DNA from: Candidatus Thermosaccharophagus tengchongensis
GTDB lineage: Bacteria; Armatimonadota; Fervidibacteria; Fervidibacterales; Thermosaccharophagaceae
Direction: 5' to 3' (one strand)
DNA: 64,000 nt
Assembly (NCBI GenBank): GCA_032161105.1
Contig: JAVHTD010000002.1
A model generated the notes under the pieces. That model worked only from the letters and a program-made list of their open reading frames with translations, did no database searches and was not told where the DNA came from. Below are positions 16,763 through 44,494 of this stretch, piece by piece. Each line of letters begins with the position of its first letter. The stretch's first letter is position 1. A program made the translations under genes and the position numbers.

Positions 16763-19195
16763 TCAATCGCTACTGCCATTTGGAGCGGTTGCTTCGGCTG
16801 GAGCAAACTCAGCTTCAACTCTTTCCATTACCCAACTTCGCTTGCTGTATGCGACTGCTCCGGCAAGGAGCGCAAAGGCTATAAGCACAACTATTGCCCT
16901 GACGATGGGTGATATCTCATGTGCGAATATAGGGGCTATCAAAATGCCCACAAGGTTCATCACTTTGATCAACGGGTTGAGTGCGGGTCCGGCTGTGTCT
17001 TTGAATGGATCTCCGACTGTGTCCCCAATCACCGCTGACTTGTGGAACTCAGTCCCCTTCCCACCGAACAAGCCGGCTTCAATCTTCTTCTTTGCGTTGT
17101 CCCACGCACCACCTGCATTGGCCATGAGCACAGCAAGCAGCTGACCTGTGACAATCGCCCCACCGAGGAAGCCACCGAGTGCTGCTGCGCCGACTTTCGT
17201 CCCCATGAAGCTCAATGCGAATGCCGTAAGTATCGGTGAGCACACCGCAAGTATTCCGGGACCAAGCAACTCTCTTTGTGCAGCTGCTGTGCTTATCGCA
17301 ACGCACCTTCCATAGTCTGGCTTTTCCTTCCATTCCATTATCCCGGGTCTCTCCCTGAATTGCCTCCTCACTTCCTCAATCAGCTGGAAGGCTGCTCTGC
17401 TCACAGCTCTTATCGCGAACGAAGAGAACAGGAATGGGACTGCAGCTCCAATGAGCAACCCGATGAATACCTCTGGCTGGTCAATTGATATTCCGAGCAC
17501 ACGCCCAATGAAGCCGTGGCTTTCGCTTGCGGCGCTAACAAGCCCTGCTGCCTCTGTGAATGACCTGAAGAGAGACACAGCAGCTATGACTGCGGTCGCA
17601 ATCGCAAAGCCCTTTGTGAGCGCCTTCGTTGTGTTTCCGACTGCATCAAGCTTTGCCACCATCCTTGCGGCTCTCTCATTCCTCGTTGCTTCGTCCCTGA
17701 GTGCTCCCGACATCTCATAGATGCCGTGAGCGTTATCCGAGATTGGACCGTAGGTGTCCATTGCGAGTATGAAGCCAGTTGTTGCAAGCAGTCCCAAGCC
17801 AGTCAGCGAAATGCCGTAAGCCGACATGAGCACATCCCCAGCGAAGATGATGAGTGATGCGAATATGGTCATTGCTATTGCAACTATTGCCCAGACGGTT
17901 GATTCAAGTCCCGTGGCAAACCCTTCAAGGATGAGTGTTGCTGTTCCGGTCTTCGTTGAGTATGCAATCTCAGTGACGGGGCGGCGCTCAGTTGATGTGA
18001 AATACTCCGTCAGCCATCCGGTTATGACGGCGAGGACGATGCCCATCGTATTCGCTGCGAAGAAACGCCACCAACCTATTGGTTCGCCCGTGTTCACATT
18101 CACGATGTTACGCAGGTAAAGAAAGCTGACAAGCGCAAAACCAAATATGCTCAATGCTGCCGAGCTCCAGAAGCCGACATTGATTGGTTGCATCGGGTCC
18201 ATTTCCTCCTCATCCCTTCCCCTAACAAGCCATGTGCCTATGACCGAAGCTATGACGCCAACGGCTCGCACGAAGAAGGCATACATGATCAGCTTGAGCG
18301 CTCCGGCTTCACCAACAACGCTCAATGCGCCGTAGCCAAGGAGAATCGCTGCCACCAGTGTCACTTCATATGACTCAAACACATCCGCAGCCATACCGGC
18401 GCAATCGCCAACATTGTCACCGACATTGTCAGCTATTACCGCTGCATTCCTCGGGTCATCTTCCGGTATGCCCTTTTCAACCTTCCCGACAAGGTCAGCG
18501 CCGACATCTGCAGCTTTGGTGTATATTCCGCCGCCGACTCGCATGAACAGCGCAGCGAGACATCCGCCAAATCCAAATCCAACAAGCACCTTCATTGCGT
18601 TCTCTCGGAAGACGAGAAAGATGATGCACGCTCCGAGCAATCCCAATCCGACTGTGAACATTCCGGAGACTGTCCCAGCTTGGAAGGCTATCTCCAAAGC
18701 CTTCTTAAACGAACCGAGTGCAGCCATCGCAACCCTGTTATTGCCATTCACCGCTGCATACATTCCGACATAGCCAGCCGAGTAGGAAGCGAACACGCCC
18801 ATCAAGAATGCCAAGCCAATCCCGATGGCGATATATGGTCCGTAGTCCGGCAAAGGCATGTAAACGAGGATTAGCACTATCGTGATTCCGATCACGAACC
18901 ATATCATCGTGCGGAACTGTCGTCTCAGGTATGCAAACGCCCCCTCCTTAATGGCTTGATTGACTTGGCGCATTGCCGGTGTGCCCGGGTCTTCTCTCAG
19001 CACTTTGCGTATCAAGTAGTAACCGTATGCGAGGGCACCGATAGCTGTTACGAGCACAAACAGCAGCACATGGATTTCGCTCTGTGAGAACGGTGGAAGC
19101 TTAATTTTTCCCTCTTGGGCGAGAGCGTTGGAAAGCGCCAACGGGAGTGCGCACATCACTGCATACATCCATCTGTGCCTGCGCATATCCTTCAC
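16763..19195 (-). CDS. hppA: Membrane-bound ion-translocating pyrophosphatase, K+-independent type
   Basis: DVGADLVGKVE, DNVGDNVGD, GPISDNA, GNTTKA, GGAWDNAKK, GDTVGDPFKD. Confidence 0.97.
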   Translation of the reverse strand: MKDMRRHRWMYAVMCALPLALSNALAQEGKIKLPPFSQSEIHVLLFVLVTAIGALAYGYYLIRKVLREDPGTPAMRQVNQAIKEGAFAYLRRQFRTMIWFVIGITIVLILVYMPLPDYGPYIAIGIGLAFLMGVFASYSAGYVGMYAAVNGNNRVAMAALGSFKKALEIAFQAGTVSGMFTVGLGLLGACIIFLVFRENAMKVLVGFGFGGCLAALFMRVGGGIYTKAADVGADLVGKVEKGIPEDDPRNAAVIADNVGDNVGDCAGMAADVFESYEVTLVAAILLGYGALSVVGEAGALKLIMYAFFVRAVGVIASVIGTWLVRGRDEEEMDPMQPINVGFWSSAALSIFGFALVSFLYLRNIVNVNTGEPIGWWRFFAANTMGIVLAVITGWLTEYFTSTERRPVTEIAYSTKTGTATLILEGFATGLESTVWAIVAIAMTIFASLIIFAGDVLMSAYGISLTGLGLLATTGFILAMDTYGPISDNAHGIYEMSGALRDEATRNERAARMVAKLDAVGNTTKALTKGFAIATAVIAAVSLFRSFTEAAGLVSAASESHGFIGRVLGISIDQPEVFIGLLIGAAVPFLFSSFAIRAVSRAAFQLIEEVRRQFRERPGIMEWKEKPDYGRCVAISTAAAQRELLGPGILAVCSPILTAFALSFMGTKVGAAALGGFLGGAIVTGQLLAVLMANAGGAWDNAKKKIEAGLFGGKGTEFHKSAVIGDTVGDPFKDTAGPALNPLIKVMNLVGILIAPIFAHEISPIVRAIVVLIAFALLAGAVAYSKRSWVMERVEAEFAPAEATAPNGSSD

Positions 19196-29873: not shown

Positions 29874-29997
29874 ACCTCGCTGATGCATCGCCGCATGGAG
29901 CTGATGTAGGCTATTGCACTTGCATGGCGATCAGAGGCATAATGTGAAGTGGATGCCAAATTAAAAGCACGGTGTGCCTCAAATTGAGGTGATTGAG

Positions 29998-31761
29998 ATG
30001 GCGCTTGCCCGCCGAAGCATCGTTGAGATACTCCGTTCAAGGGGTAAGCTGACGGACGAGCAATTGAAAGAGGCAATGAAGGCTCGCCGGGATACAACAC
30101 AGCCAATTGAGGAGATACTTATCCAACTCGGCATAGTTAGCAAGCAGGACATACTCTCAGCCAAGGCGGAACAGTTGGGAGTGGAGTTCGTTGACCTCAG
30201 TCAGATACAAATTGACGAGAGCGCTATGGGCTTGGTGCCGCGTGAGCTCATGGAGAAGTATAGGGCTGTGCCGATAAGGATTGAGGGCAACAGGTTGACT
30301 GTGGCGATGGCGAATCCGAGGGACTTGATGGCTATTGATGACCTCAGGATGCGCACAAGGTTGAACATAAGACCAGTCCTTGCAGACCCGGAGGCGATTG
30401 ATACGATACTTTCTGGTGAGCTGACTGGTGCAGCAGTTGCTGGCGGGAGTGTTGCAAGGGATATTGAAGCTGCGCTTAGAGCTATGGAGAAGGAAAGCGC
30501 TGGGAAGGAAAGCAGGCTCGGTGAAGAACTCGCTGCTGCTGGTCACCTTGCAGACCTGAGCAAGCTTGAAAGGGTAAGCGATGAAGCCCTCGCTGATGAG
30601 GCGCCAGTCATACGGATAGTTAACTTGCTGTTTAAGGAAGCAATCAGGAACAACGCAAGCGATATCCATGTTGAGCCGCAGAGGAAAGATGTGCGTATAA
30701 GGATGCGCATTGATGGTGTGCTGCATGAATTCTTCAGGTTGCCAAAGTGGATACACGCGCCACTAATTGCCCGCATAAAAATCCTCGCTGACATGGATAT
30801 CGCTGAGAAGCGTATCCCTCAAGACGGACGAATACAGCTTCGCATGGCGAAGAAACTCTTTGATGTGCGTGTCTCAACCATACCGACAACAAATGGCGAG
30901 AAGGCGGTCTTGCGCCTGCTTGACCAAACGAGCGTCCTAATCGGATTGGACAAGCTCGGTTTGTTCCCGGACGATGTGGCGAAGATTGAGTATCTCATAT
31001 CGCAGCCAAACGGGATGATACTGAGCACAGGTCCCACTGGTTCCGGTAAGACCACAACGCAATATTCAATCATGCACCGGCTTAACACCACCGAGGTGAA
31101 CATCATCACGATAGAAGACCCGGTTGAATATCAGCTCCCGGGGCTCAACCAAGTCCATGTGAACAGGAAGGCAGGGCTCACATTCGCAACTGCACTTAGG
31201 TCATTCCTTCGTCAAGACCCGGACATCATCATGGTTGGAGAGATACGAGACCTTGAGACAGCCGACATCGCCATTCAGGCTGCTCTCACTGGTCACCTCG
31301 TTCTATCAACACTGCACACAAATGATGCTCCAACTGCCATAACTCGTTTGATTGAGATGGGGGTTGAGCCATTCCTTATTGCTGCGTCTGTGATCGGCGT
31401 TATTGCGCAGCGCCTTGCGAGGCGCATTTGCCCGAACTGTAAGGAAGAGTATGAGCCACCGCCAGAGTTGCTTGCGCGCTTTGGCTATCAGGGTGATGGC
31501 GACCAGAAGTTTTATCGTGGCAGAGGATGTGAGATATGCAGGCAGACCGGTTATAAAGGGCGCATAGGCATCTTTGAGATCTTCGTGATGAACCAAGAGA
31601 TCGCTGATTTGGTTTTGAGGAGGGCACCATTGACTGAAATTCGTGACGCAGCGGTCGCAAGCGGGATGAAGACTTTGCTTGAAGACGGCTTCAGGAAAGT
31701 GCTCGCCGGCATAACAACACCTGAAGAAGTTCTGCGCGTCGTTGCAACTGCTGGCTACTAA
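29998..31761 (+). CDS. pilB: Type IV pilus assembly ATPase PilB (GspE family)
   Basis: ASDIHVEP, GPTGSGKTTT, TIEDPVE, LRQDPD, CPNC/CEIC zinc motif. Confidence 0.93.
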   Translation: MALARRSIVEILRSRGKLTDEQLKEAMKARRDTTQPIEEILIQLGIVSKQDILSAKAEQLGVEFVDLSQIQIDESAMGLVPRELMEKYRAVPIRIEGNRLTVAMANPRDLMAIDDLRMRTRLNIRPVLADPEAIDTILSGELTGAAVAGGSVARDIEAALRAMEKESAGKESRLGEELAAAGHLADLSKLERVSDEALADEAPVIRIVNLLFKEAIRNNASDIHVEPQRKDVRIRMRIDGVLHEFFRLPKWIHAPLIARIKILADMDIAEKRIPQDGRIQLRMAKKLFDVRVSTIPTTNGEKAVLRLLDQTSVLIGLDKLGLFPDDVAKIEYLISQPNGMILSTGPTGSGKTTTQYSIMHRLNTTEVNIITIEDPVEYQLPGLNQVHVNRKAGLTFATALRSFLRQDPDIIMVGEIRDLETADIAIQAALTGHLVLSTLHTNDAPTAITRLIEMGVEPFLIAASVIGVIAQRLARRICPNCKEEYEPPPELLARFGYQGDGDQKFYRGRGCEICRQTGYKGRIGIFEIFVMNQEIADLVLRRAPLTEIRDAAVASGMKTLLEDGFRKVLAGITTPEEVLRVVATAGY

Positions 31762-31844
31762 TAAACCGAACAGGGCGGTTGCGAAGTTTTGAGTCAGCTC
31801 ATTAAACTCCCCTCTAAATCATCACTGGTGGGGGTGAAGGTTAA

Positions 31845-32969
31845 ATGGCAGCAACAAGCGAGAGGCGTGTTAAGGAGCTTATGTCCCTTGATGATGTGCA
31901 CATTGATGACTTGCTTCGCGTCGTCGTTGAAAAGAATGCCTCAGACTTGCATCTGTGTGTCGGGGTGCCGCCGGTGTTGCGCATTGATGGCAGGCTTTAC
32001 CGAACACCATTTATGCCTGCAGAGCCGGCTCAGACGCAACGCCTCATTTACGAGATCCTCACCGATGACCAGATACAGCGCTTTGAGAACGACCTTGAAC
32101 TTGACTTCTCATATTCGCTTCAGAACATTGCCCGCTTCAGGGTGAATGTGTTCAAGGACAGGGGCAATGTTGCTGCCGCATTTCGCCTCATACCGAGGCG
32201 CATACCATCAATTAGGGAGCTTGGTCTCCCAATAATACTTGAGGAGCTGATTTTGAAGCCGCGAGGGTTGATCCTTGTCACAGGTCCGACCGGTTCTGGA
32301 AAATCAACGACGCTCGCTGCGATGATTGATCACTTGAACAATACCGATAGTAGGCATGTGATCACGATTGAGGACCCAATTGAGTATATGCACACGCACA
32401 AGAAGTGCATCATCAATCAGCGCGAGATAGGACAAGATACCCTTTCCTTTGCGAAGGCTTTGAGGAGCGCGTTGAGAGAAGATCCGGATGTGATACTCGT
32501 TGGCGAGATGAGAGACCTTGAAACAATCGCAACAGCTATAACCGCTGCAGAGACAGGTCACTTAGTGCTTGCAACATTGCACACAAACAATGCTGCAGAG
32601 ACAATTGACCGAATCATTGATGTGTTCCCGGCTGAGCAACAGGCTCAAATTAGGGTTCAGCTCTCCAACAACCTTGTGGCGGTGCTCTCTCAGCAGCTCC
32701 TTCCGAGGGCTTCAGGGAGAGGTAGGGTAGCCGCAATGGAGATAATGATTGCAACACCAGCCATACGAAACTTGATACGAGAGGGCAAAACACATCAGAT
32801 TCCGTCAATCATCCAGACGAGCGGTGAGCACGGCATGCAAACAATGGATCAGGCACTGCGCGACCTTTACTTGCAAGGTATAATCACTTATGAAGACGCA
32901 ATGGCAAGGGCGCAACGCCCAGAGGAGTTGAAGAAGATGCTCGCAGATGCAGGAGTTCAGGTGAGGTGA
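31845..32969 (+). CDS. pilT: Type IV pilus retraction ATPase PilT
   Basis: GPTGSGKSTT, LREDPD, AIRNLIRE signature. Confidence 0.95.
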   Translation: MAATSERRVKELMSLDDVHIDDLLRVVVEKNASDLHLCVGVPPVLRIDGRLYRTPFMPAEPAQTQRLIYEILTDDQIQRFENDLELDFSYSLQNIARFRVNVFKDRGNVAAAFRLIPRRIPSIRELGLPIILEELILKPRGLILVTGPTGSGKSTTLAAMIDHLNNTDSRHVITIEDPIEYMHTHKKCIINQREIGQDTLSFAKALRSALREDPDVILVGEMRDLETIATAITAAETGHLVLATLHTNNAAETIDRIIDVFPAEQQAQIRVQLSNNLVAVLSQQLLPRASGRGRVAAMEIMIATPAIRNLIREGKTHQIPSIIQTSGEHGMQTMDQALRDLYLQGIITYEDAMARAQRPEELKKMLADAGVQVR

Positions 32970-32974
32970 TTAAA

Positions 32975-34240
32975 ATGCCTGTGTTCAGTTATGTGGCTCG
33001 CAATGCTCAAGGTCAAGTCATACGGGGAAGTGAAGAAGCAGAGAATGCTGAAATACTTCGCAGGATGCTTAAGGAGCGCGGCTATTGGGTCACGCAGATA
33101 AAGCAGGAGAGAGAAGCAGCGGCAGCAGCACCTAAGAAGGCAGGGCCGAAGTTCGTGTTTGGCAGAGTTAAGTTGGCGCACCTTGCTATATTCTGCAGGC
33201 AGCTTGCCACCCTCATAAACGCAGGTGTATCACTTGTGCGGGCGCTCTCTGTCCTTGAGAAGCAGACGCCAAGCCCGCGCCTGGCACAGATAATTCGTGA
33301 GGTCGCTCAAAAGGTGCAAGAGGGTATGTCCTTCTCAAGGGCGCTGGCGGATTATCCCAAAATCTTCTCCAACCTGTTTGTTGGTCTTGTAAGAGCTGGC
33401 GAGGTTGGCGGTGTCCTCGATGAGACACTTGATAGGATGGCTACATTCTTGGAAAAGGACTTGGAGCTGCGCCGCAAGGTCAAGTCGGCAATGACATACC
33501 CAACCATCGTCACCATATTTGCGGTTGGCGTCGTCGTATTCTTGTGCACATTCGTTGTGCCGAAGTTCATGAAGTTGTTCGAAGAGCTTGAGCTCAAGCC
33601 CGAGGAATTCCCGATTGTCACTCGGATGTTGAAAGCTTTCAGTGATTTCTTGCTGACGAAGTGGTGGATGGTTCTAATAGGCGTTGTGCTGTTTGCCATA
33701 GCCTTCATCAACTACGTCCGCACTCGCACCGGTAAAAAGCAATATGACTGGCTCAAGTTGCATGTGCCTATACTTGGACCAATCAACCACATGGTTGCAT
33801 TGGCGCGCTTTGCAAGGACTTTTGGAACGCTCATAAACAGCGGTGTTCCGATACTTCAGGCTATGGATACATGTGCTGAGGCAATAGGCAATGACATTGT
33901 TGCCAAGGCGATAATGGACGCAAGGATGGCTGTGAGGGAAGGTTCACGCATTGCCGACCCGCTTGAGAATAGCAAGCTCTTTCCTCCAATGGTTGTTCAC
34001 ATGATCGCAGTTGGAGAGGAAACAGGTTCGCTTGATCAGATGCTCCAGAAGATAGCTGACTTCTATGAGAGCGAAGTTGATGCAAGGCTTGAGAGCTTAG
34101 CTGCAACGATTGAGCCAGTGCTCATAGTCATGCTGGGCGGAGTTGTGCTGTTCATCATCCTCTCCGTCTTCATGCCACTGATAACGATCATAAACAAGCT
34201 CTCCGGAGGCGGTGGAGAGGGGGAGGGTGGAAGCGAGTAA
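32975..34240 (+). CDS. pilC: Type IV pilus platform protein PilC (GspF family)
   Basis: RQLATLINAG, AGEVGG, SAMTYP, GEETGSLD, IEP. Confidence 0.93.
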   Translation: MPVFSYVARNAQGQVIRGSEEAENAEILRRMLKERGYWVTQIKQEREAAAAAPKKAGPKFVFGRVKLAHLAIFCRQLATLINAGVSLVRALSVLEKQTPSPRLAQIIREVAQKVQEGMSFSRALADYPKIFSNLFVGLVRAGEVGGVLDETLDRMATFLEKDLELRRKVKSAMTYPTIVTIFAVGVVVFLCTFVVPKFMKLFEELELKPEEFPIVTRMLKAFSDFLLTKWWMVLIGVVLFAIAFINYVRTRTGKKQYDWLKLHVPILGPINHMVALARFARTFGTLINSGVPILQAMDTCAEAIGNDIVAKAIMDARMAVREGSRIADPLENSKLFPPMVVHMIAVGEETGSLDQMLQKIADFYESEVDARLESLAATIEPVLIVMLGGVVLFIILSVFMPLITIINKLSGGGGEGEGGSE

Positions 34241-36125: not shown

Positions 36126-38084
36126 CTATTCTTGCTTTCCCTCCGCCTTCCCTTCGCCCTGTTGCTCTAATCCTTTCTCCTTCAGCTCCTGCTCTTTAAC
36201 TTCAGCCTTTATTGGTTGCTTCTTGGCTGGCTCCTCTTTGACCTTTGGCTTTATCACCTCAGGTGGTTTTAGCCTGAGCCTGACGATGTCGTGTGGCTTG
36301 ATTTGCATTCCCTCCTCAAGCTCAACAATCACAGCCTTTGACATATCCTGCATGACTTCAATGACGCGTATCACTCCAACAGGCTCCTCAATGATGCGTT
36401 CACCGCGAGCTGTCTGAAAATGCACTCGCCTAATAACCGTGAACTCATCCCCGACTTTAATTCCGGCATCCTCACCGATATCAATGTAGGCGAACTTGTC
36501 CTCAACTGCCCCGACTTGCCCCTCCCTTGCTACAGGCAATGTAGGTTGAGCTGTGATGACAGCCGGAGTAATTCTTGGGAGAGCAGCCCATGTCATTTCG
36601 CCGCGCAGTGCCTTGACGAGCTGTGCGATGGCATCAGATGCGGCAGCGCGATATAGCGATATGTCAAGCACACCTCTTTCAATTTGCTCCGGTTGCACTT
36701 GCGGTGGCTCGCGTGACTCAATTGGCATTGATGTATGGATGGGTTGCTTGCTGATGCCCTTGCCTTCAAATCGGCTGCTCCATACCAGCCTTCCAGTCCG
36801 CCCATCAAATAAGCGTGCCTCAACGAATATGCTCACACGCTGTTGCCTCTCCGTCCTTATCTGCCAGATCCTTCTATCAGCCGCTGGGCTTGGACGGCTT
36901 GTCAAGCCTTGACTGATGATGGAGAAGGCGTCAACCCCAGCTATGTGCCCTGCAAGTATAGCATCGCATTTGTGCTTCTCGCAAAGCTGCTTTACAACCT
37001 CAGACGGTATGTTTCCGGAGCGGTAGGTATCCCAAGCAACAGCGTCCTCAAACATCTGTTGGTTAGCGACGAGCAGCTCCTCAACCAAGTTCGCGTTCTT
37101 TACAGCATCAACAACCTGCTCCCCGAACTGCATCACATATGGTCTAATTGCTGGCATCTCCGAGAATGGAAACACAAGCAGCCTTCTCACATGACTCAAG
37201 TCAAGGTGAAGTATTAAGCGCGGCTCACTCGGTATGTCCTCAATGCGCTCATATAAGGAGACAAGGTGATTCAAAAAGCGGATGTTCGGTGAGTAGAACA
37301 GGATGCGATAATAATTGCCACCTTTGCTGGCGCGCACGAGCACACTTTGGTTTTGGCGGAGCACATCAATCGGGTAGGGCAGCCTTTCCTTGATTGCTCT
37401 CGGTATGGGCTGCTCCCCTGTGAGGATGTAGACCTCCGTCTCTGTTGCGAGCAATCGCTCAACCTTGGGGAGCTTATCCAAAGTCACCCAGACGAAGTCG
37501 GCTCGCACCGTCTCACCGAATATGGCTATTGTCTCCTCACCGGCGTTTGTGACCACGACGAGCAGTGGCACTTGCCATATGCGTTGCATTTTCAGGTCGG
37601 TTATTTCACGCACCTCAAGTTCGCTCAATTTCTCAATGGCTTCGCAAGCCGAGTTGTGGCTCGGTGCTGAAATGAGCATGCGCACATAGGGCTTGCGCTC
37701 AATTAACTTCACATCACCGGCGAGAACAACATCCATGTCTCGAATCAGGCGAATGTCATACGGGAGAAGCTCGCGGTGCTCCATCGGAAATGGCTCTTTT
37801 GTCCAGTCAAGGATGAAGATGACATGCTTTTCAGCTTTCTCAATTTCAGCGGCACGCTTTGGCAGCTCAGAGAGGCTGATAAATGTGGTTTGAGTGCCCT
37901 CGGGCAGCTTAGTGCGGAATTCATTGTATAGCGTGATTGAGTTTGAAACGACAACGACCTCCCCCTTCAAGAACTCAACGGCTGGACGCTTCGTAAGGAA
38001 GGCACGGCGAAGTTGTGCTGTGCTCAGGTTGCTCAGAAGAAACAGGCATCCCAAGGTGACAACGAGCATCATTTGACGACCCAT
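36126..38084 (-). CDS. Secreted hypothetical protein; possible CsgG/LpoB-like domain and FlgT-C-like C-terminal domain
   Basis: Signal peptide; CDAILAG...RLFDGRTGRLVWS; AYIDIGEDAGIKVGDEF. Confidence 0.6.
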   Translation of the reverse strand: MGRQMMLVVTLGCLFLLSNLSTAQLRRAFLTKRPAVEFLKGEVVVVSNSITLYNEFRTKLPEGTQTTFISLSELPKRAAEIEKAEKHVIFILDWTKEPFPMEHRELLPYDIRLIRDMDVVLAGDVKLIERKPYVRMLISAPSHNSACEAIEKLSELEVREITDLKMQRIWQVPLLVVVTNAGEETIAIFGETVRADFVWVTLDKLPKVERLLATETEVYILTGEQPIPRAIKERLPYPIDVLRQNQSVLVRASKGGNYYRILFYSPNIRFLNHLVSLYERIEDIPSEPRLILHLDLSHVRRLLVFPFSEMPAIRPYVMQFGEQVVDAVKNANLVEELLVANQQMFEDAVAWDTYRSGNIPSEVVKQLCEKHKCDAILAGHIAGVDAFSIISQGLTSRPSPAADRRIWQIRTERQQRVSIFVEARLFDGRTGRLVWSSRFEGKGISKQPIHTSMPIESREPPQVQPEQIERGVLDISLYRAAASDAIAQLVKALRGEMTWAALPRITPAVITAQPTLPVAREGQVGAVEDKFAYIDIGEDAGIKVGDEFTVIRRVHFQTARGERIIEEPVGVIRVIEVMQDMSKAVIVELEEGMQIKPHDIVRLRLKPPEVIKPKVKEEPAKKQPIKAEVKEQELKEKGLEQQGEGKAEGKQE

Positions 38085-38281
38085 AAGTCCTCTCACCTCC
38101 GAGCCCAAAACCAACCACTCGGTCTTCCCAAAGCCAATAACAACTTAGCGCCGTAGCCGCTATGTGTCAAATGGGGTTAGCATGGGTTACTGTGTCCATT
38201 GAGTGGTATTGCATCTGCATTGGGGTTGCCTTCTAAGTCAACGCGGATGGTGCAGAGGTGATCGGGGTGGGATGGATTAAG

Positions 38282-40015
38282 ATGACGCACATTGCAGGAG
38301 CTCTCATGAGCCTATTCAGCGTTGCGCTTGTGTTTGTTCTGTTTTGGCACTTGCGCAGCGCGGTCAGGTTGCTCCCCGAAGAGGAGCAAAGCAAATTGCA
38401 GGCGGCAAGGGGAATGGTTAGGAGAATCAGTTTGGCATCGCTCTTGCTGAGCGCTTTGGCGATTGGCGTGATAAGCCTTTTGAGCGCTCTTCGAATGCCG
38501 CCATTCTCGCCGGGGCAGGCTCTCGCAGTATCGCTCCCATTGATGTGGGTCATGTTCGGAGTCCCCTTCGCATTGCTTGATGAAGTGATGGTGCTCAGCG
38601 CAGCCACGAGTGGCAGCGTGCTTAGCCTTACTCCGGCAAGTTGGCTTCTTTGCGTCTCCATCGCCGTTGTCCCGATGGCTCTATCAATACTGTCAGTGCA
38701 GTTGTTGATGTCTCAAAAGTTGGTCGGGCTGAGCGAGTCGCTCAGCGGTTGCGCATTTGCTGTTGCCAGCATGTCGCTCGCCTTCTTTGTGGCAGTGGCT
38801 GTTAGCTCAAGTTTGCGTCAAGGGGGCGAAAGCAGCTTTGAACCATTCTTTCGCTCCCCAATGCTCGTGCGAGCTATAGCATTAACTGCTGCGGGAACGC
38901 TTATGATGACGCTCGCCATTGCCATTCATCATCCCTCACCAAAAGGGGAAAGCATTTTCATCATTGCCTATCCGGTGGCGCTATCGGCAGCATTGCTCAT
39001 TGGATGGCACATAGCCAGCGGTGTGATTCTCATCGGTGGCGAGAGATTGATTAAATTCGGACACATTGTGCACCCTGTTATAGCCGGGCTTGTATTCGCT
39101 TTGATTGGGAGTGCATTCGCACACGCGAGCATCAAACCTTACTCCCATCTCTTCAGGCTCGGTGTGGTCGCATTCATTTTCGTTGCGGTGATGTATCAGT
39201 TGCTCATTCATCGGGGCACGATGGCTGAGCGTGATATCTCTGCAACACAGCAATTTGGGATAGCGGCGTCCCTGCTTGTTCTCGGAATGATAGCTGTAGC
39301 ATTTGCGGCTCATCGTGCGTATGGTGTTGGTGTTGCCGGTATTGGCTTTCTCCCAGCCGCACATTTCTTCGGCGTGCTCGCAAGCTGGCTCGTGCAGATG
39401 GATTCCGAGTTTCGTAAGGAGCAGTTTTGGCGCATGGCGCTCGTATCAAACTTACCCATCATAGTTTTGGCGATGCGCCTGATGTATGAAAGGCAGGTTC
39501 AAGCAGCCATCCTTCCATCGCATTCACCCATCGTGCTCGTGAGCGCTTGTGCAGGCGCCTTAACTTTCACTGCCCTCACCGGGTTGGTCACCAGCTCGTC
39601 AGGCAATGCCATTGCGAGTGCGCTCAACGGTTTTTGGGGGTTGTTTGCGAAGTCGCTGTTAGCCCTCGCTCGCATTGGTTTGATTGCGGTCGGCTTTGCT
39701 GTCCTGCTGCCCATGCTTTGGGGGGCGAGCGCATCATTCGGGTTCATCATCGGCGTTGCAATTTCAACCTTAATGCTATGCACCATGCCGGGTTTGAACT
39801 CGCCCTCGTTGGCTTGGCGGTTTGCCATCCTCTGGTATGTGGCATTGACGCTCATGCTGTGCATCGGCATCGTGCATACAACCCAGCTTTTGATCCCATT
39901 GTCGCTTCGCCCACGCCTGTTCAGGGTGTGGATGTTCATTGGCTTGCTCTTACTCACCGGTATTGCATGGGGATTGCTCGGTATTGCCCGAAGGCGCATT
40001 TGGCGATCCTCATAG
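38282..40015 (+). CDS. Polytopic membrane protein (about 16-17 TM); apparent catalytically degenerate mPPase-fold homolog
   Basis: Almost entirely hydrophobic; TM segments match hppA in order by eye (see findings). Confidence 0.7.
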   Translation: MTHIAGALMSLFSVALVFVLFWHLRSAVRLLPEEEQSKLQAARGMVRRISLASLLLSALAIGVISLLSALRMPPFSPGQALAVSLPLMWVMFGVPFALLDEVMVLSAATSGSVLSLTPASWLLCVSIAVVPMALSILSVQLLMSQKLVGLSESLSGCAFAVASMSLAFFVAVAVSSSLRQGGESSFEPFFRSPMLVRAIALTAAGTLMMTLAIAIHHPSPKGESIFIIAYPVALSAALLIGWHIASGVILIGGERLIKFGHIVHPVIAGLVFALIGSAFAHASIKPYSHLFRLGVVAFIFVAVMYQLLIHRGTMAERDISATQQFGIAASLLVLGMIAVAFAAHRAYGVGVAGIGFLPAAHFFGVLASWLVQMDSEFRKEQFWRMALVSNLPIIVLAMRLMYERQVQAAILPSHSPIVLVSACAGALTFTALTGLVTSSSGNAIASALNGFWGLFAKSLLALARIGLIAVGFAVLLPMLWGASASFGFIIGVAISTLMLCTMPGLNSPSLAWRFAILWYVALTLMLCIGIVHTTQLLIPLSLRPRLFRVWMFIGLLLLTGIAWGLLGIARRRIWRSS

Positions 40016-40017
40016 GG

Positions 40018-42153
40018 TCACCAGCGATGGCACATACTCCCTATGTGGATTTGCGTGCCAGTCGGCATGCTGAACCTCCTTATGAGGCAGCGATTTGAGC
40101 ACCCATTACATTCAAACGAATCAGCCACTGCATCCAGCGGTGGCAGTTCAAATCCCCTGAATGAGCTCTCCTGCGGGCGAAGGTTTGCTGCGAGCAGCGC
40201 TGCACCTATTGCGCCCATCACATTGAAATGCTCTGGCACATAAACTTCACAGTGCAACATTTCTTCAAGCGCATCCCTTATAGCGCCGTTGGCAGCCACA
40301 CCCCCGCAGAATACATACGGCGGCTGTATAGCTCTCCCCGAAACAACATTGCTGAAGTAGTTTCGGACGAGTGCAGTGCACAATCCTGCAACCAACTCCT
40401 CAATTGGCTGTCCGGCTTGTTGGCGCAACACTAAATCGCTCTCGGCAAATACGGTGCATCGTCCGCCTATCCTCGCTCGTCTCTTAGCCCTCCTTGCGAT
40501 CTCACCGAATGCCTCAATTGGTATTCCGAGGCGTGCGGCTTGGTGATCAAGGAATGCTCCGGTGCCGGCTGCACACACCGTGTTCATCGCAAATTCCGTT
40601 GGGACGCCGTCTTGAAGGAGTATCAGCTTTGCGTCTTGCCCGCCAATCTCAAACACAGTCCTTGCATCTGGCACCTCACGGCTAATAGATGCAGCATGCG
40701 CTGTAATCTCATTTCGTATGATGTCAGCTCCAACGAATGCCCCGATGAGCTCGCGCCCGCTGCCGGTGACACCGACGGAGATGACCCTTCCATTGCAATG
40801 TCTTCCAGCCTCTGCAAGCATTCGGCGCAGCGTCTCAACTGGGTTGCCGTATGTCCTCTCATACGACTTGTAAATCAGCTGCAAGTCGGAGGCATTAAGC
40901 AGGACGACCTTAGCCGTTATTGAGCCGACATCAATTCCTACGACCACACCATCCTCGTTTAAACTTGAAGCATTGTTTACGGCTTCCTTTGACGGCTTGG
41001 CTGCGATGCTGATGAGCACGGATGAACCTTTGCGCTTGTTGAAGAGGAGGGTATCTATGAACGCCTCAATCCTGACTTTGATGGCGTCGGGTTGCGTGTG
41101 CTCATCAAATGTGATGGCGCATATTGGCGGCAAGTTGTATTTGCCCCTGAAGAAGTTAAGCGCCCCAACTGCCGTTGTTTCTGGTGTGCATCCAAATGTG
41201 CTCAAGTGAATGATGCCATCAACGCCTTTGTTGCGGGCTTTCAGCGCCGCGCAAATTGTGATGATGTCCGAACCTGTGATGCGCTGTCCGAGCATGCGCA
41301 GCCCTTTGCGATAGTTTCCGTTTCCCCACAGGTCACTGAATGGGTTGATAAACGACCACCAGTCCATAACCCAAATGAGCTGCGCTTGCAATTGCGATGA
41401 GATGAAGCGCACAAGGTCAAATGCCGGGAAGCTGCCAAGCATAGTTGTATAGAAGTCACCGATGATCGCTACCCTTGCGCTTGGCTCACGATGGCGCAGC
41501 AGACTTTCCATGCGCCTAATAGCCCCGTGATATGCCTCATCGGAAGCCTTTCGTGATGTGGCTTTGAGCATCTCGCGGTATGCATCCGTTAGAATGGACA
41601 TCGCTGCCTCATACTCATCCACGGCATGCAGACGCTCTATCACGAATTCGTTTAAGTGGGCGTATAGTTTGACTTTCCTCAGACCGTCAAGTATTAGCCC
41701 GAGCATCTTTAGGTCACTGATGCTTGTGCATCCCGAGAACTTGCACAGTTGCTTGGCTTCTTTCAGCAGCGATAGGAATGCTGTGCGGAACATGACAGCC
41801 GGGTTGATGTTAACGATAACCCACTTGATCTCTCTACCGAAGTTGCTTTCAATCATCGGTTTTAAGAGCGCAGCGGTTGTATGCCCGAGCATGCAAGTTC
41901 CCGGTCCGCCGGGGACGATGAAAGTTTCGGCGCCCTCACTTGCCCCCGTTAGGATGTCCGCAAATATCAGGCGCAAGTCATAGCACCAATAGTCAGGTCC
42001 GCACCCTTTAGCCATGTCCACGGTCTGCCTGCTTGGCGGTCTCGGTGGAATGACATCCAACCCGATGCCGCTGGCGATGTGATGCCACAGCAGGCTATAT
42101 TCGCGCATGTATGTGATGAATGTTTTCGTCGTCTTCCTATTAGCGCTCGCCAT
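40018..42153 (-). CDS. CoA-enzyme activase (BadF/BadG/BcrA/BcrD) fused to a 2-hydroxyacyl-CoA dehydratase/DUF2229-like N-terminal half
   Basis: GIDVGSITAK, TGSGR, EIGGQDAK, CAAGTG, CTVFAESD, GGVAAN; N-half STFGCTPE, DEHT..RIEAF. Confidence 0.85.
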   Translation of the reverse strand: MASANRKTTKTFITYMREYSLLWHHIASGIGLDVIPPRPPSRQTVDMAKGCGPDYWCYDLRLIFADILTGASEGAETFIVPGGPGTCMLGHTTAALLKPMIESNFGREIKWVIVNINPAVMFRTAFLSLLKEAKQLCKFSGCTSISDLKMLGLILDGLRKVKLYAHLNEFVIERLHAVDEYEAAMSILTDAYREMLKATSRKASDEAYHGAIRRMESLLRHREPSARVAIIGDFYTTMLGSFPAFDLVRFISSQLQAQLIWVMDWWSFINPFSDLWGNGNYRKGLRMLGQRITGSDIITICAALKARNKGVDGIIHLSTFGCTPETTAVGALNFFRGKYNLPPICAITFDEHTQPDAIKVRIEAFIDTLLFNKRKGSSVLISIAAKPSKEAVNNASSLNEDGVVVGIDVGSITAKVVLLNASDLQLIYKSYERTYGNPVETLRRMLAEAGRHCNGRVISVGVTGSGRELIGAFVGADIIRNEITAHAASISREVPDARTVFEIGGQDAKLILLQDGVPTEFAMNTVCAAGTGAFLDHQAARLGIPIEAFGEIARRAKRRARIGGRCTVFAESDLVLRQQAGQPIEELVAGLCTALVRNYFSNVVSGRAIQPPYVFCGGVAANGAIRDALEEMLHCEVYVPEHFNVMGAIGAALLAANLRPQESSFRGFELPPLDAVADSFECNGCSNRCLIRRFSMPTGTQIHIGSMCHRW

Positions 42154-43303: not shown

Positions 43304-44494
43304 ATGCGCATTGTCCTTTACACTGGGAAGGGCGGCGTGGGTAAGACGAGCATAAGTGCAGCAACAGGGATACTGTGCGCCGAGCTTGGTTACAAGACTT
43401 TGGTCATGAGCACAGATCCTGCGCACTCGCTCTCTGACTCGCTTTGCATGAAGCTTGGAAGCGAGCCAACAGAAATCTGTGATGGGCTTTTTGGGATGGA
43501 GATAGACCCGTTCGCTGAGATTGAGGAGAACTGGGCAGCTGCAAAGGATTACCTTACGATGCTATTTGCCTCGCAAGGGCTTGACGAAGTCGCAGCTGAA
43601 GAACTCGCAGTGCTTCCGGGAATGGATGAGTTGTTTAGCCTGCTCAAGGTCAAGCGATTTTACGAAAGCGGTGAGTTTGATGTGCTCGTCGTTGATTGCG
43701 CTCCAACTGGCGCAACGATACGATTGCTTAACTTCCCGGAAGTGCTGCAGTGGTATATGAAGCGCCTGTTCCCAGTGGAGAGGTATGTCGTTGGCACAAT
43801 TCGCAAGTTCAAGCGCGAGATATTTTCCGTTCCACTCCCGAGTGATGCCGTCTTTGATACGATACAGCGCATGTATGCGAATGTGGATGAGATGCGCGAC
43901 ATATTGCTTGACCCGCGGGTGACAACGATACGCCTCGTTCTCAATCCGGAGAAGATGGTCATACAGGAAACGAGGCGCGCTTACACGTATCTTAACCTCT
44001 TCGGCTTTCACACCGATGCCATTATCGCAAACAAGGTCTTCCCCGAGGAGATCACCGACCTATATTTCTCCGAGTGGAAGAAGGTGCAAAAGGCTTACTT
44101 GGAGGAGGTTGAGGCGTCGTTTCCGAACCTACCGATATTTAAGGTGAGGTTTTATCGGCACGAAGTCGTCGGTTTAGAGAGCCTCCGCAGAATGGCACAT
44201 GATACATTCGGCGACAGCGACCCAACCCAAATATTCGCTCAGGATGAACCAATGCAGATAATCAAGGAGGGCAGCAATTATACGCTTGTCCTGAAGCTGC
44301 CGTTCGTCTCTCATAGGGAAGTTGACCTCTATCAGAAGGGCGATGAGCTCATAGTCAGGATTGGGAACTTCAAGCGCAACATCATCTTGCCTATGGTGCT
44401 CGCTCGCCTTGAAGTGGTTAATGCCAAGTTCGTTGAAGACAAACTCCACATACGCTTTACTGACAAGCGAAGACCAAAATCACACCATCAGTAG
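43304..44494 (+). CDS. ArsA/Get3-family ATPase with C-terminal HSP20-like domain
   Basis: GKGGVGKT, STDPAHSL, PGMDE, DCAPTG; C-terminal LKLPFV...GDELIVRIG. Confidence 0.9.
   Translation: MRIVLYTGKGGVGKTSISAATGILCAELGYKTLVMSTDPAHSLSDSLCMKLGSEPTEICDGLFGMEIDPFAEIEENWAAAKDYLTMLFASQGLDEVAAEELAVLPGMDELFSLLKVKRFYESGEFDVLVVDCAPTGATIRLLNFPEVLQWYMKRLFPVERYVVGTIRKFKREIFSVPLPSDAVFDTIQRMYANVDEMRDILLDPRVTTIRLVLNPEKMVIQETRRAYTYLNLFGFHTDAIIANKVFPEEITDLYFSEWKKVQKAYLEEVEASFPNLPIFKVRFYRHEVVGLESLRRMAHDTFGDSDPTQIFAQDEPMQIIKEGSNYTLVLKLPFVSHREVDLYQKGDELIVRIGNFKRNIILPMVLARLEVVNAKFVEDKLHIRFTDKRRPKSHHQ

Follow-up and report, generated by a model that had tools for sequence, protein, structure and literature searches.

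Contig JAVHTD010000002.1 of the Candidatus Thermosaccharophagus tengchongensis assembly (GCA_032161105.1) carries, within the 64,000-nucleotide stretch that we analysed and call the window, a plus-strand gene at 38258..40015 (stop codon included; delimited from the list of open reading frames (ORFs) and the translation) whose product is predicted to have the fold of a membrane pyrophosphatase (mPPase) and to be catalytically dead. The window also holds hppA (16763..19195, minus strand), which encodes the genome's one true mPPase (HppA, 810 residues; PF03030, E 2.4e-245) and is the sole PF03030 match in the genome. Translated from GTG 38258 the target protein has 585 residues, and from ATG 38282, the start also used in public gene calls, it has 577; residue numbers refer to the latter version (P0001). 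Because a Trp conserved among relatives is encoded just upstream of ATG 38282, translation probably begins at GTG 38258 or 38267, so that the frame and strand given in the initial annotation hold and its start at 38282 probably does not. The description there of a nearly all-hydrophobic ORF of ~580 residues fits well (3 Asp and 13 Glu per 577 residues). A promoter scan of the target returned no sigma-70-like site, and the five terminator-like sites found are no excess over shuffled sequence (3.5 ± 2.0).

With no Pfam or NCBIfam model matching P0001 even at E ≤ 10, the ORF might be taken for spurious or for a decaying pseudogene. Its frame is intact, however, as are those of all 80 relatives whose loci were fetched (466–622 residues), and the predicted structure is confident. 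Strain variants of the gene recur on contigs from four further hot-spring studies; they show 18 differences in all, 11 synonymous and seven non-synonymous, without insertions or deletions (ratio of non-synonymous to synonymous polymorphism, pN/pS, ~0.21 in this small sample). The gene is real and under purifying selection; intact frames, strain variation and the confident model effectively refute the pseudogene or spurious-ORF reading. The initial annotation had argued against a pseudogene from the intact frame.

A search of 5.77e9 proteins with P0001 recovered three relatives only (64%, 56% and 37% identity), one of them labelled as a protein from an Armatimonadota metagenome-assembled genome, and the one named record of the family is called 'hypothetical protein'. 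A four-row clade profile of the target and these three relatives added, in an exhaustive HMMER search of 1.84e9 representatives, three weak relatives of similar length, and a word-index search with the seven-row profile gave no further ones. Among 401 Armatimonadota genomes the seven-row profile matched weakly in 28, in frames of 480–620 residues that are collinear with it over almost its full length. A 26-row alignment displays the motifs PFSxGQxLG, a GxG turn, LFRLFxER, DLxxHYxFxGxLLGxxxP and LWGxKxxxGFxxGLA; its profile matched 195 of the 401 genomes at E ≤ 1e-5, where the weakest matches may be hppA itself, and ~147 of them at E ≤ 1e-20. We fetched 80 loci from the strong matches to this profile, beside 22 earlier ones, and the final family alignment comprises 104 rows of Armatimonadota relatives. 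Conserved homologues, on which the proposal of a pseudo-pyrophosphatase depended, are therefore abundant. None of the 78 fetched relatives scanned matched PF03030 at E ≤ 0.01; two of the 22 earlier relatives reach 17.5 and 12.7 bits, below the gathering score of 29.7 bits that P0001 likewise misses. A family hidden Markov model (HMM) built without the target's own clade matches the target over its full length (E 1.8e-28). One early candidate (L011) proved to be a CdsA-type cytidylyltransferase and five others (L006, L012, L013, L020 and L030) were fragments, and all six were dropped; ESM Atlas searches with the target and a typical member returned only sub-0.9 unnamed clusters, which were not used. 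Family matches also lie inside two far longer open frames (G313:C24:9664-11301, 1436 residues; G248:C250:25319-26869, 854 residues), which may be fusions or over-extended frames. Literature searches for dead or pseudo mPPases found no such family described, in keeping with the initial annotation, which knew of none, although most subscription journals lie outside the coverage of these searches; those for macroglobulins in Armatimonadetes found nothing relevant beyond the Mag and ECAM work, again with subscription-only papers not covered.

The relationship to mPPases becomes detectable at the level of the family. BLASTP of P0001 against HppA gave nothing significant (best E 1.1), the four-row clade profile reached 0.38% against HppA and 5.5% against the mPPase alignment, and a PDB sequence search with it returned no match. 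Profile-profile alignment (hhalign) of the 26-row family with 31 Armatimonadota mPPases gave 99.35% (E 6.1e-21, 464 columns) and that of the 104-row family 99.21% (E 1.1e-19). The reversed 104-row alignment gave 0.31%, which excludes composition as the cause of the match. An hmmsearch of the 5.77e9 proteins with the 26-row profile gave 22 matches; four are family members, and the 18 from outside the family all carry PF03030 (best E 5.9e-16). Among the 6469 ORFs of the target's own genome (at least 100 residues, E ≤ 10) the family HMM found the target (1.3e-68) and HppA (2.2e-12) only. In the reverse direction, an HMM of the 31 mPPases detected just two of the 80 fetched members. The target's link to mPPases is transitive via the wider family, because its own four-row clade reaches no more than 5.5%; for the family, the profile comparisons show homology, as common descent or a superfamily relationship. 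The profile check suggested in the initial annotation thus came out negative in the direct PF03030 search and positive between profiles (99.2–99.35%). In a quick FastTree the family is monophyletic with respect to mPPases (support 100). Helix signatures common to both lie in transmembrane helices (TM) 5, 7, 11, 13, 14 and 15, and the five helix pairs that the initial annotation had read by eye all fall exactly in the hhalign register: ESLSGC.. with KVLVGF.. of HppA (TM5), IIAYPV.. with IMYAFF.. (TM7), RAYGVG.. with SAYGIS.. (TM11), SPIVLV.. with QPEVFI.. (TM13) and GASASF.. with GAAALG.. (TM15). HppA serves here as a homologous reference for the target, not as a demonstrated partner. It has an additional hydrophobic N-terminal segment and an additional C-terminal helix (810 residues against a phylum median of ~725), and its motif reads GNTTKA, with Lys at a place that we take to mark K+-independent enzymes.

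Structure prediction agrees with the profiles. AlphaFold2, given the 104 family rows with no mPPase rows and no templates, produced a model with a predicted local distance difference test (pLDDT) of 87.8 and a predicted template-modelling score (pTM) of 0.91; a model from four rows only (pLDDT 39) was discarded. Foldseek against the PDB gave 36 matches at E ≤ 0.001. Those listed to rank 35 are all mPPases from Thermotoga, Vigna or Pyrobaculum (template-modelling scores 0.61–0.69), and the next listed, at rank 37, has an E value of 0.023 and a score of 0.12. In VIA-align the best superposition was on the Thermotoga maritima enzyme (TmPPase, 4av6_A; Z 33.7, root mean square deviation 3.1 Å over 519 residues, model 4–543 against TmPPase 5–726); 21 mPPase entries scored Z 28.7–33.7 and the best other fold 6.9. 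Across the solved mPPases 519–546 residues superpose at 3.1–3.7 Å, with model residues 1–543/550 aligned to TmPPase 2–726 and to the Vigna radiata enzyme (VrPPase) 10–766. All 16 mPPase helices are present in the model in the same order, followed by a 17th (545–576) that is absent from the solved enzymes. The model and the missing motifs together leave little doubt that the family has a catalytically dead mPPase fold. The intact but inactive mPPase-fold protein pictured in the initial annotation is borne out by family-level profiles and by the superposition of TM1–16, and in its structural check mPPases came out best, with other folds at Z 6.9 or below in VIA-align.

What the family has lost is the hydrolytic centre. 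The motifs DVGADLVGK, DNVGDNVGD, GPISDNA, GNTT, WDNAKK and GDTVGDP, and likewise EVRRQF, are each found in 28–31 of the 31 Armatimonadota mPPases and in none of the 104 family rows, so that the six acidic pyrophosphate (PPi)/Mg motifs reported missing from the target are missing throughout; these motifs fall within mPPase-only inserts of the alignment. Within the aligned range 167 cytoplasmic residues, 77 of them nearly invariant among mPPases, occur in mPPases only. Because these are missing, most of the difference in length is explained, which sustains the larger part of the initial proposal that lost loops account for the whole ~230-residue shortfall. The ion-gate residues of mPPases are an Asp/Glu in TM6 and a Lys in TM16, and the target has neither: HppA Asp271 corresponds to Ala198, in a column that holds Glu or Asp in 35/104 members and Ala, Val or Leu in the remainder, and the TM16 columns of the 104-row alignment contain no conserved Asp, Glu or Lys. 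Members with the TM6 Glu/Asp may retain an ion site. Judged from alignment and model, the target can neither hydrolyse PPi nor use it as a driving force.

The same pattern can be followed along the protein, with all features on the plus strand. The TM5 equivalent (residues 150–177, 38729..38812; model helix H150-177), aligned by hhalign with HppA KVLVGFGFGG.., stops where mPPases run on into GGG..TKAADVGADLVGKVE, a motif found in 0/104 members, and the TM6 equivalent (184–214, 38831..38923), placed by the hhalign register, is without DNVGDNVGD. The TM11 equivalent (349–370, 39326..39391; aligned to HppA SAYGISLTGLGLL) is preceded by a G346-x-G348 turn (AYG in the target; G348 99%, G346 94%) and no GPISDNA follows it. 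The TM12 equivalent (376–404, 39407..39493; aligned to HppA ..SLFRSF..) lacks GNTT and closes, at its putative periplasmic end, with RLMYER (399–404), in which R399 is kept in 98/104 members, E403 in 49/104 and R404 in 62/104. His414 (H/Q in 88/104) precedes the TM13 equivalent (416–440, 39527..39601; hhalign with HppA QPEVFIGLLIGAAVPFLF), and the cytoplasmic EVRRQF helix that follows TM13 in mPPases is gone. After the LWG turn (W480 78%), the TM15 equivalent (484–501, 39731..39784; aligned to HppA GAAALGGFLGGAIVT; G491 99%) ends ahead of the place of GGAWDNAKK, with WDNAKK in 0/104 members, and the TM16 equivalent (510–541, 39809..39904), placed by structural alignment, has neither GDTVGDPFKD nor the conserved Lys. 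The motif PFSPGQ (74–79, 38501..38518; P74 85%, F75 76% and G78 90% of the 104 rows), in the probably periplasmic TM2–TM3 loop, is the family's own. The 17th TM helix (model helix H545-576, 39914..40009) falls outside the mPPase-aligned range, with R545 in 93/104 members, K/R548 in 102/104 and an equivalent of R576 in 78/104. This helix would put a basic C-terminus in the cytoplasm. The target has the helix and the family motifs of the outer face (PFSPGQ, AYG, RLMYER, H414, LWG, R545 and R548), while K483 of LWGxK is Ser.

Conservation lies on one side of the bundle. With the orientation taken from mPPases, the periplasmic thirds of the family's helices average 1.90 bits, with 53/142 columns at 2 bits or more, and the cytoplasmic thirds 0.93 bits, with 1/100 columns at that level; the loops follow suit (1.79 bits periplasmic against 0.64 cytoplasmic). 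The polarity in mPPases is the reverse. Conserved charged residues line the outer boundary (R/H217, R/K282, R399, E403, R404, H414, K483, R545, K/R548 and D/E152), and we infer that conservation in the family has shifted to the periplasmic face.

We next consider gene context. An alpha-2-macroglobulin (A2M) gene lies directly downstream on the same strand in 75 of the 80 loci fetched, and two of the five loci without it are cut by contig ends; the adjacency also holds in 15 of the 22 earlier loci. The downstream gene encodes ~1600 residues with MG2, bMG3, bait region, A2M, TED and bMG10 domains. Start and stop codons overlap by 4 nucleotides in 22 of 77 family-A2M junctions, and under a naive start rule the spacing is between -100 and +20 nucleotides in 56 of the 77. 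The thioester motif C.EQ is present in 64/66 of the operon A2Ms, and 55/66 have an N-terminal hydrophobic segment of their own. In all six sampled loci with more sequence, a VanW-domain gene comes next after A2M; a 2024 study showed that VanW domains act as L,D-transpeptidases (PMC11348318). There is no mPPase among the 1715 neighbour ORFs of the 80 loci and no hppA within 5 kb. One genome (G287) has two family paralogues (L117 and L010), one with A2M downstream and the other without. In two loci the gene after VanW encodes a protease (L150:2641-4902, minus strand; L152:1159-2994, plus strand), one of pro-kumamolisin/S8 type and the other FHA-trypsin-like.

The target's clade departs from this arrangement. 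Its close relatives L001 and L004 have no A2M adjacency, nor does a clade from the target's order (L021/L026/L029/L136, 465–483 residues). The target clade is nested inside the A2M-linked family, as sister to a P0007/P0008/L005 clade (support 82) of which L005 is A2M-linked, and because of this nesting the adjacency was most likely lost in the target's lineage. An A2M orthologue remains in the target's genome on contig C28, running on into C33 (33% identity over 1100 residues), as does a VanW orthologue on contig C20 (48% identity), so that the three genes are on separate contigs. A complex prediction from alignments of the target with residues 1–420 of its own A2M orthologue scored 0.25 and 0.12 against a mark of 0.32, values that weigh neither for nor against binding. 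Beyond the window, 36 kb downstream of the target, a second and divergent A2M (C2:172107-176732) has 1541 residues, CFEQ and its own N-terminal hydrophobic segment; it is 25% identical to operon-type A2Ms, over the C-terminal half only.

Around the target itself, a minus-strand gene at 36126-38114, divergent from it, encodes a 662-residue protein with an N-terminal signal-like segment in which the only domain found is a C-terminal FlgT_C (E 2.8e-07). Convergent on the other side (40018-42153, minus strand) is a 711-residue protein that ends 3 nucleotides from the target's stop; its C-terminal 250 residues are a BcrAD/BadFG-type ATPase and its first ~400 residues match no Pfam family. Further upstream, at 29974-34240 on the plus strand, a type IV pilus set (PilB-like with an MshEN domain, PilT-like and PilC-like) is followed by a GT9 heptosyltransferase-family gene and a GNAT gene, and an ArsA/GET3-type ATPase fused to an HSP20-like domain lies at 43304-44494 (plus strand). 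L001, the relative with 56% identity, shows the same local gene order.

From these results we propose that an ion-pumping mPPase gave rise to the target, an inner-membrane protein of 17 helices. It would have kept the 16-helix bundle and lost the Mg-PPi-binding cytoplasmic extensions of helices 5, 6, 11, 12, 15 and 16 and, in the target, the TM6 acid as well. The family gene normally forms an operon with a thioester-type A2M and a VanW-type L,D-transpeptidase, and most likely the protein is the membrane platform of a periplasmic module for protease trapping and wall repair. The protein's outer face would hold these two partners, position them or regulate them, much like MagB in the case of MagD. 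In the target's genome the operon would have been broken up with all three genes retained. On balance we favour this re-use of a pump scaffold as the membrane partner of an A2M/L,D-transpeptidase envelope module, a reading built on gene order and on analogy; the partnership is slightly more probable for the family as a whole, and that the unlinked target copy still holds the role falls slightly short of an even chance. Among the three options offered in the initial annotation (regulatory partner of HppA, channel or transporter, scaffold), the scaffold fits best, given A2M downstream in 75/80 loci.

Several observations weigh against this proposal. The functional link between the family and A2M/VanW is drawn from gene order, and the target's own tie to the module appears to be by descent only, because its three genes are dispersed and no A2M gene adjoins it. 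Its clade is the most divergent branch of the family, without K483 and the TM6 acidic residue, and the tree that nests it is a quick FastTree with long branches. Because 55/66 operon A2Ms bring their own anchor, plain anchoring is not obviously needed. The assignment of conserved residues to the outer face takes the mPPase orientation, with the N-terminus outside, as an assumption. Neither the FlgT_C protein nor the BcrAD/BadFG ATPase recurs near the other 80 family loci. Finally, two genomes of the same genus (98% and 96% complete) have hppA and no family member, and since it is absent there the family gene is dispensable in them.

Other readings of the same data can be set beside it. The inner ring of helices 5, 6, 11, 12, 15 and 16 could still conduct H+ or Na+, since the entire TM bundle, exit-channel half included, is the best-conserved part of the protein, R399 in TM12 is near-invariant and 35/104 members have Glu or Asp at the HppA Asp271 position; yet the target has Ala there, two thirds of the members also lack the acid, and no mid-membrane Asp, Glu or Lys is conserved in TM6 or TM16. 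We consider such a channel unlikely, and equally so its ion-coupled version, in which ions flow passively or the membrane potential drives conformational work in the periplasm, possibly on A2M/VanW. A similarly low probability attaches to the idea that the target's lineage left the A2M module for another role, possibly with the FlgT_C protein or the ATPase next to it. This would fit the missing A2M adjacency in the target, L001 and L004, the local order kept in L001, the long branch with some family residues lost, and the unlinked L021/L026/L029/L136 clade of the same order. But synteny among such close relatives proves little, the local neighbours are nowhere else linked to the family, A2M and VanW orthologues persist in the genome, and the target retains most of the family's periplasmic motifs (PFSPGQ, the GxG turn, RLMYER, H414, LWG, R545 and R548).

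The outer-face charges invite a further suggestion, that a basic cluster binds undecaprenyl-PP or lipid II and so tethers both operon partners where the wall is being built or repaired. At the edge of the membrane on the periplasmic side are conserved Arg, Lys or His at positions 217, 282, 399, 404, 414, 483, 545 and 548 and Asp or Glu at 152, 403, 410 and 413, the operon partner cross-links peptidoglycan, and the ancestor bound pyrophosphate, though on the other side of the membrane. The suggestion is drawn purely from residue types, and with the ancestral PPi site wholly deleted there is no continuity of a binding site; we regard it as improbable. Least probable of these is a regulatory or structural heterodimer with active HppA. 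mPPases are homodimers, the scaffold is homologous and the two genes lie 19 kb apart in the window, which is what made the proposal attractive in the initial annotation. It is made very improbable by the occurrence of the family in at least five near-complete genomes without hppA: G003, G040, G086, G096 and G107 (90–97% complete) have no PF03030 match, nor has the 61%-complete G224. Co-occurrence is uninformative with hppA in 343/401 genomes, and the conserved linkage is to A2M, with no mPPase among the 1715 neighbour ORFs. A more far-reaching version of the membrane-platform proposal, which we hold to be possible and not probable, is that the mPPase bundle, working from its outer face, is the transmembrane receptor or transducer of an 'innate immunity and repair' module of A2M and L,D-transpeptidase. 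Such a receptor may detect damage to the envelope or lipid-linked pyrophosphates, or ion flow through the remaining half of the channel may power its periplasmic partners.

To our knowledge mPPases have been regarded as an enzyme family complete in itself, with one function. A widespread family with the full bundle and a deleted hydrolytic centre would mean that the mPPase scaffold can be re-used, and it offers a natural 'minimal membrane domain' for studying the bundle apart from catalysis. The operon linkage would add a membrane-embedded third component to the idea of bacterial A2M defence and repair, and it makes the module testable in cultivable Armatimonadota. Were the receptor or transducer version true, the mPPase superfamily would gain its first member that is not an enzyme, and A2Ms a membrane partner of a new kind. 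Pfam and NCBIfam at present do not detect the family; a dedicated profile would give hundreds of genes a label.

Compared with known systems, the closest in structure are the mPPases themselves (HppA; PF03030; 4AV3/4AV6 from Thermotoga maritima, 4A01 from Vigna radiata and 8B37 from Pyrobaculum aerophilum), with which the family shares the bundle and profile homology. The target differs from them in having no PF03030 match, no PPi/Mg motifs or cytoplasmic extensions and Ala in TM6, and the family in its 17th helix, its conservation on the opposite face and its gene context. ECAM, a lipoprotein, is not known to have a polytopic membrane partner. The closest in proposed role is MagB of Pseudomonas aeruginosa, which anchors and stabilises the type II A2M MagD at the inner membrane (PMC5764988). 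Both are membrane proteins whose genes share an operon with that of a bacterial A2M, and the likeness proposed is one of role, with no homology expected. MagB has a single predicted TM helix and a large soluble part, and MagD is without the CxEQ thioester motif, in contrast to C.EQ in 64/66 operon A2Ms here. The same paper describes a type I A2M paired with PBP1c, read as protease trapping coupled to periplasmic wall repair (PMC5764988). The yfhM-pbpC pair of E. coli and Salmonella resembles the present operon in joining a thioester-type A2M to a peptidoglycan cross-linking enzyme, and differs in that the cross-linker here is of VanW type instead of a penicillin-binding protein and that the mPPase-fold gene stands as an added first gene.

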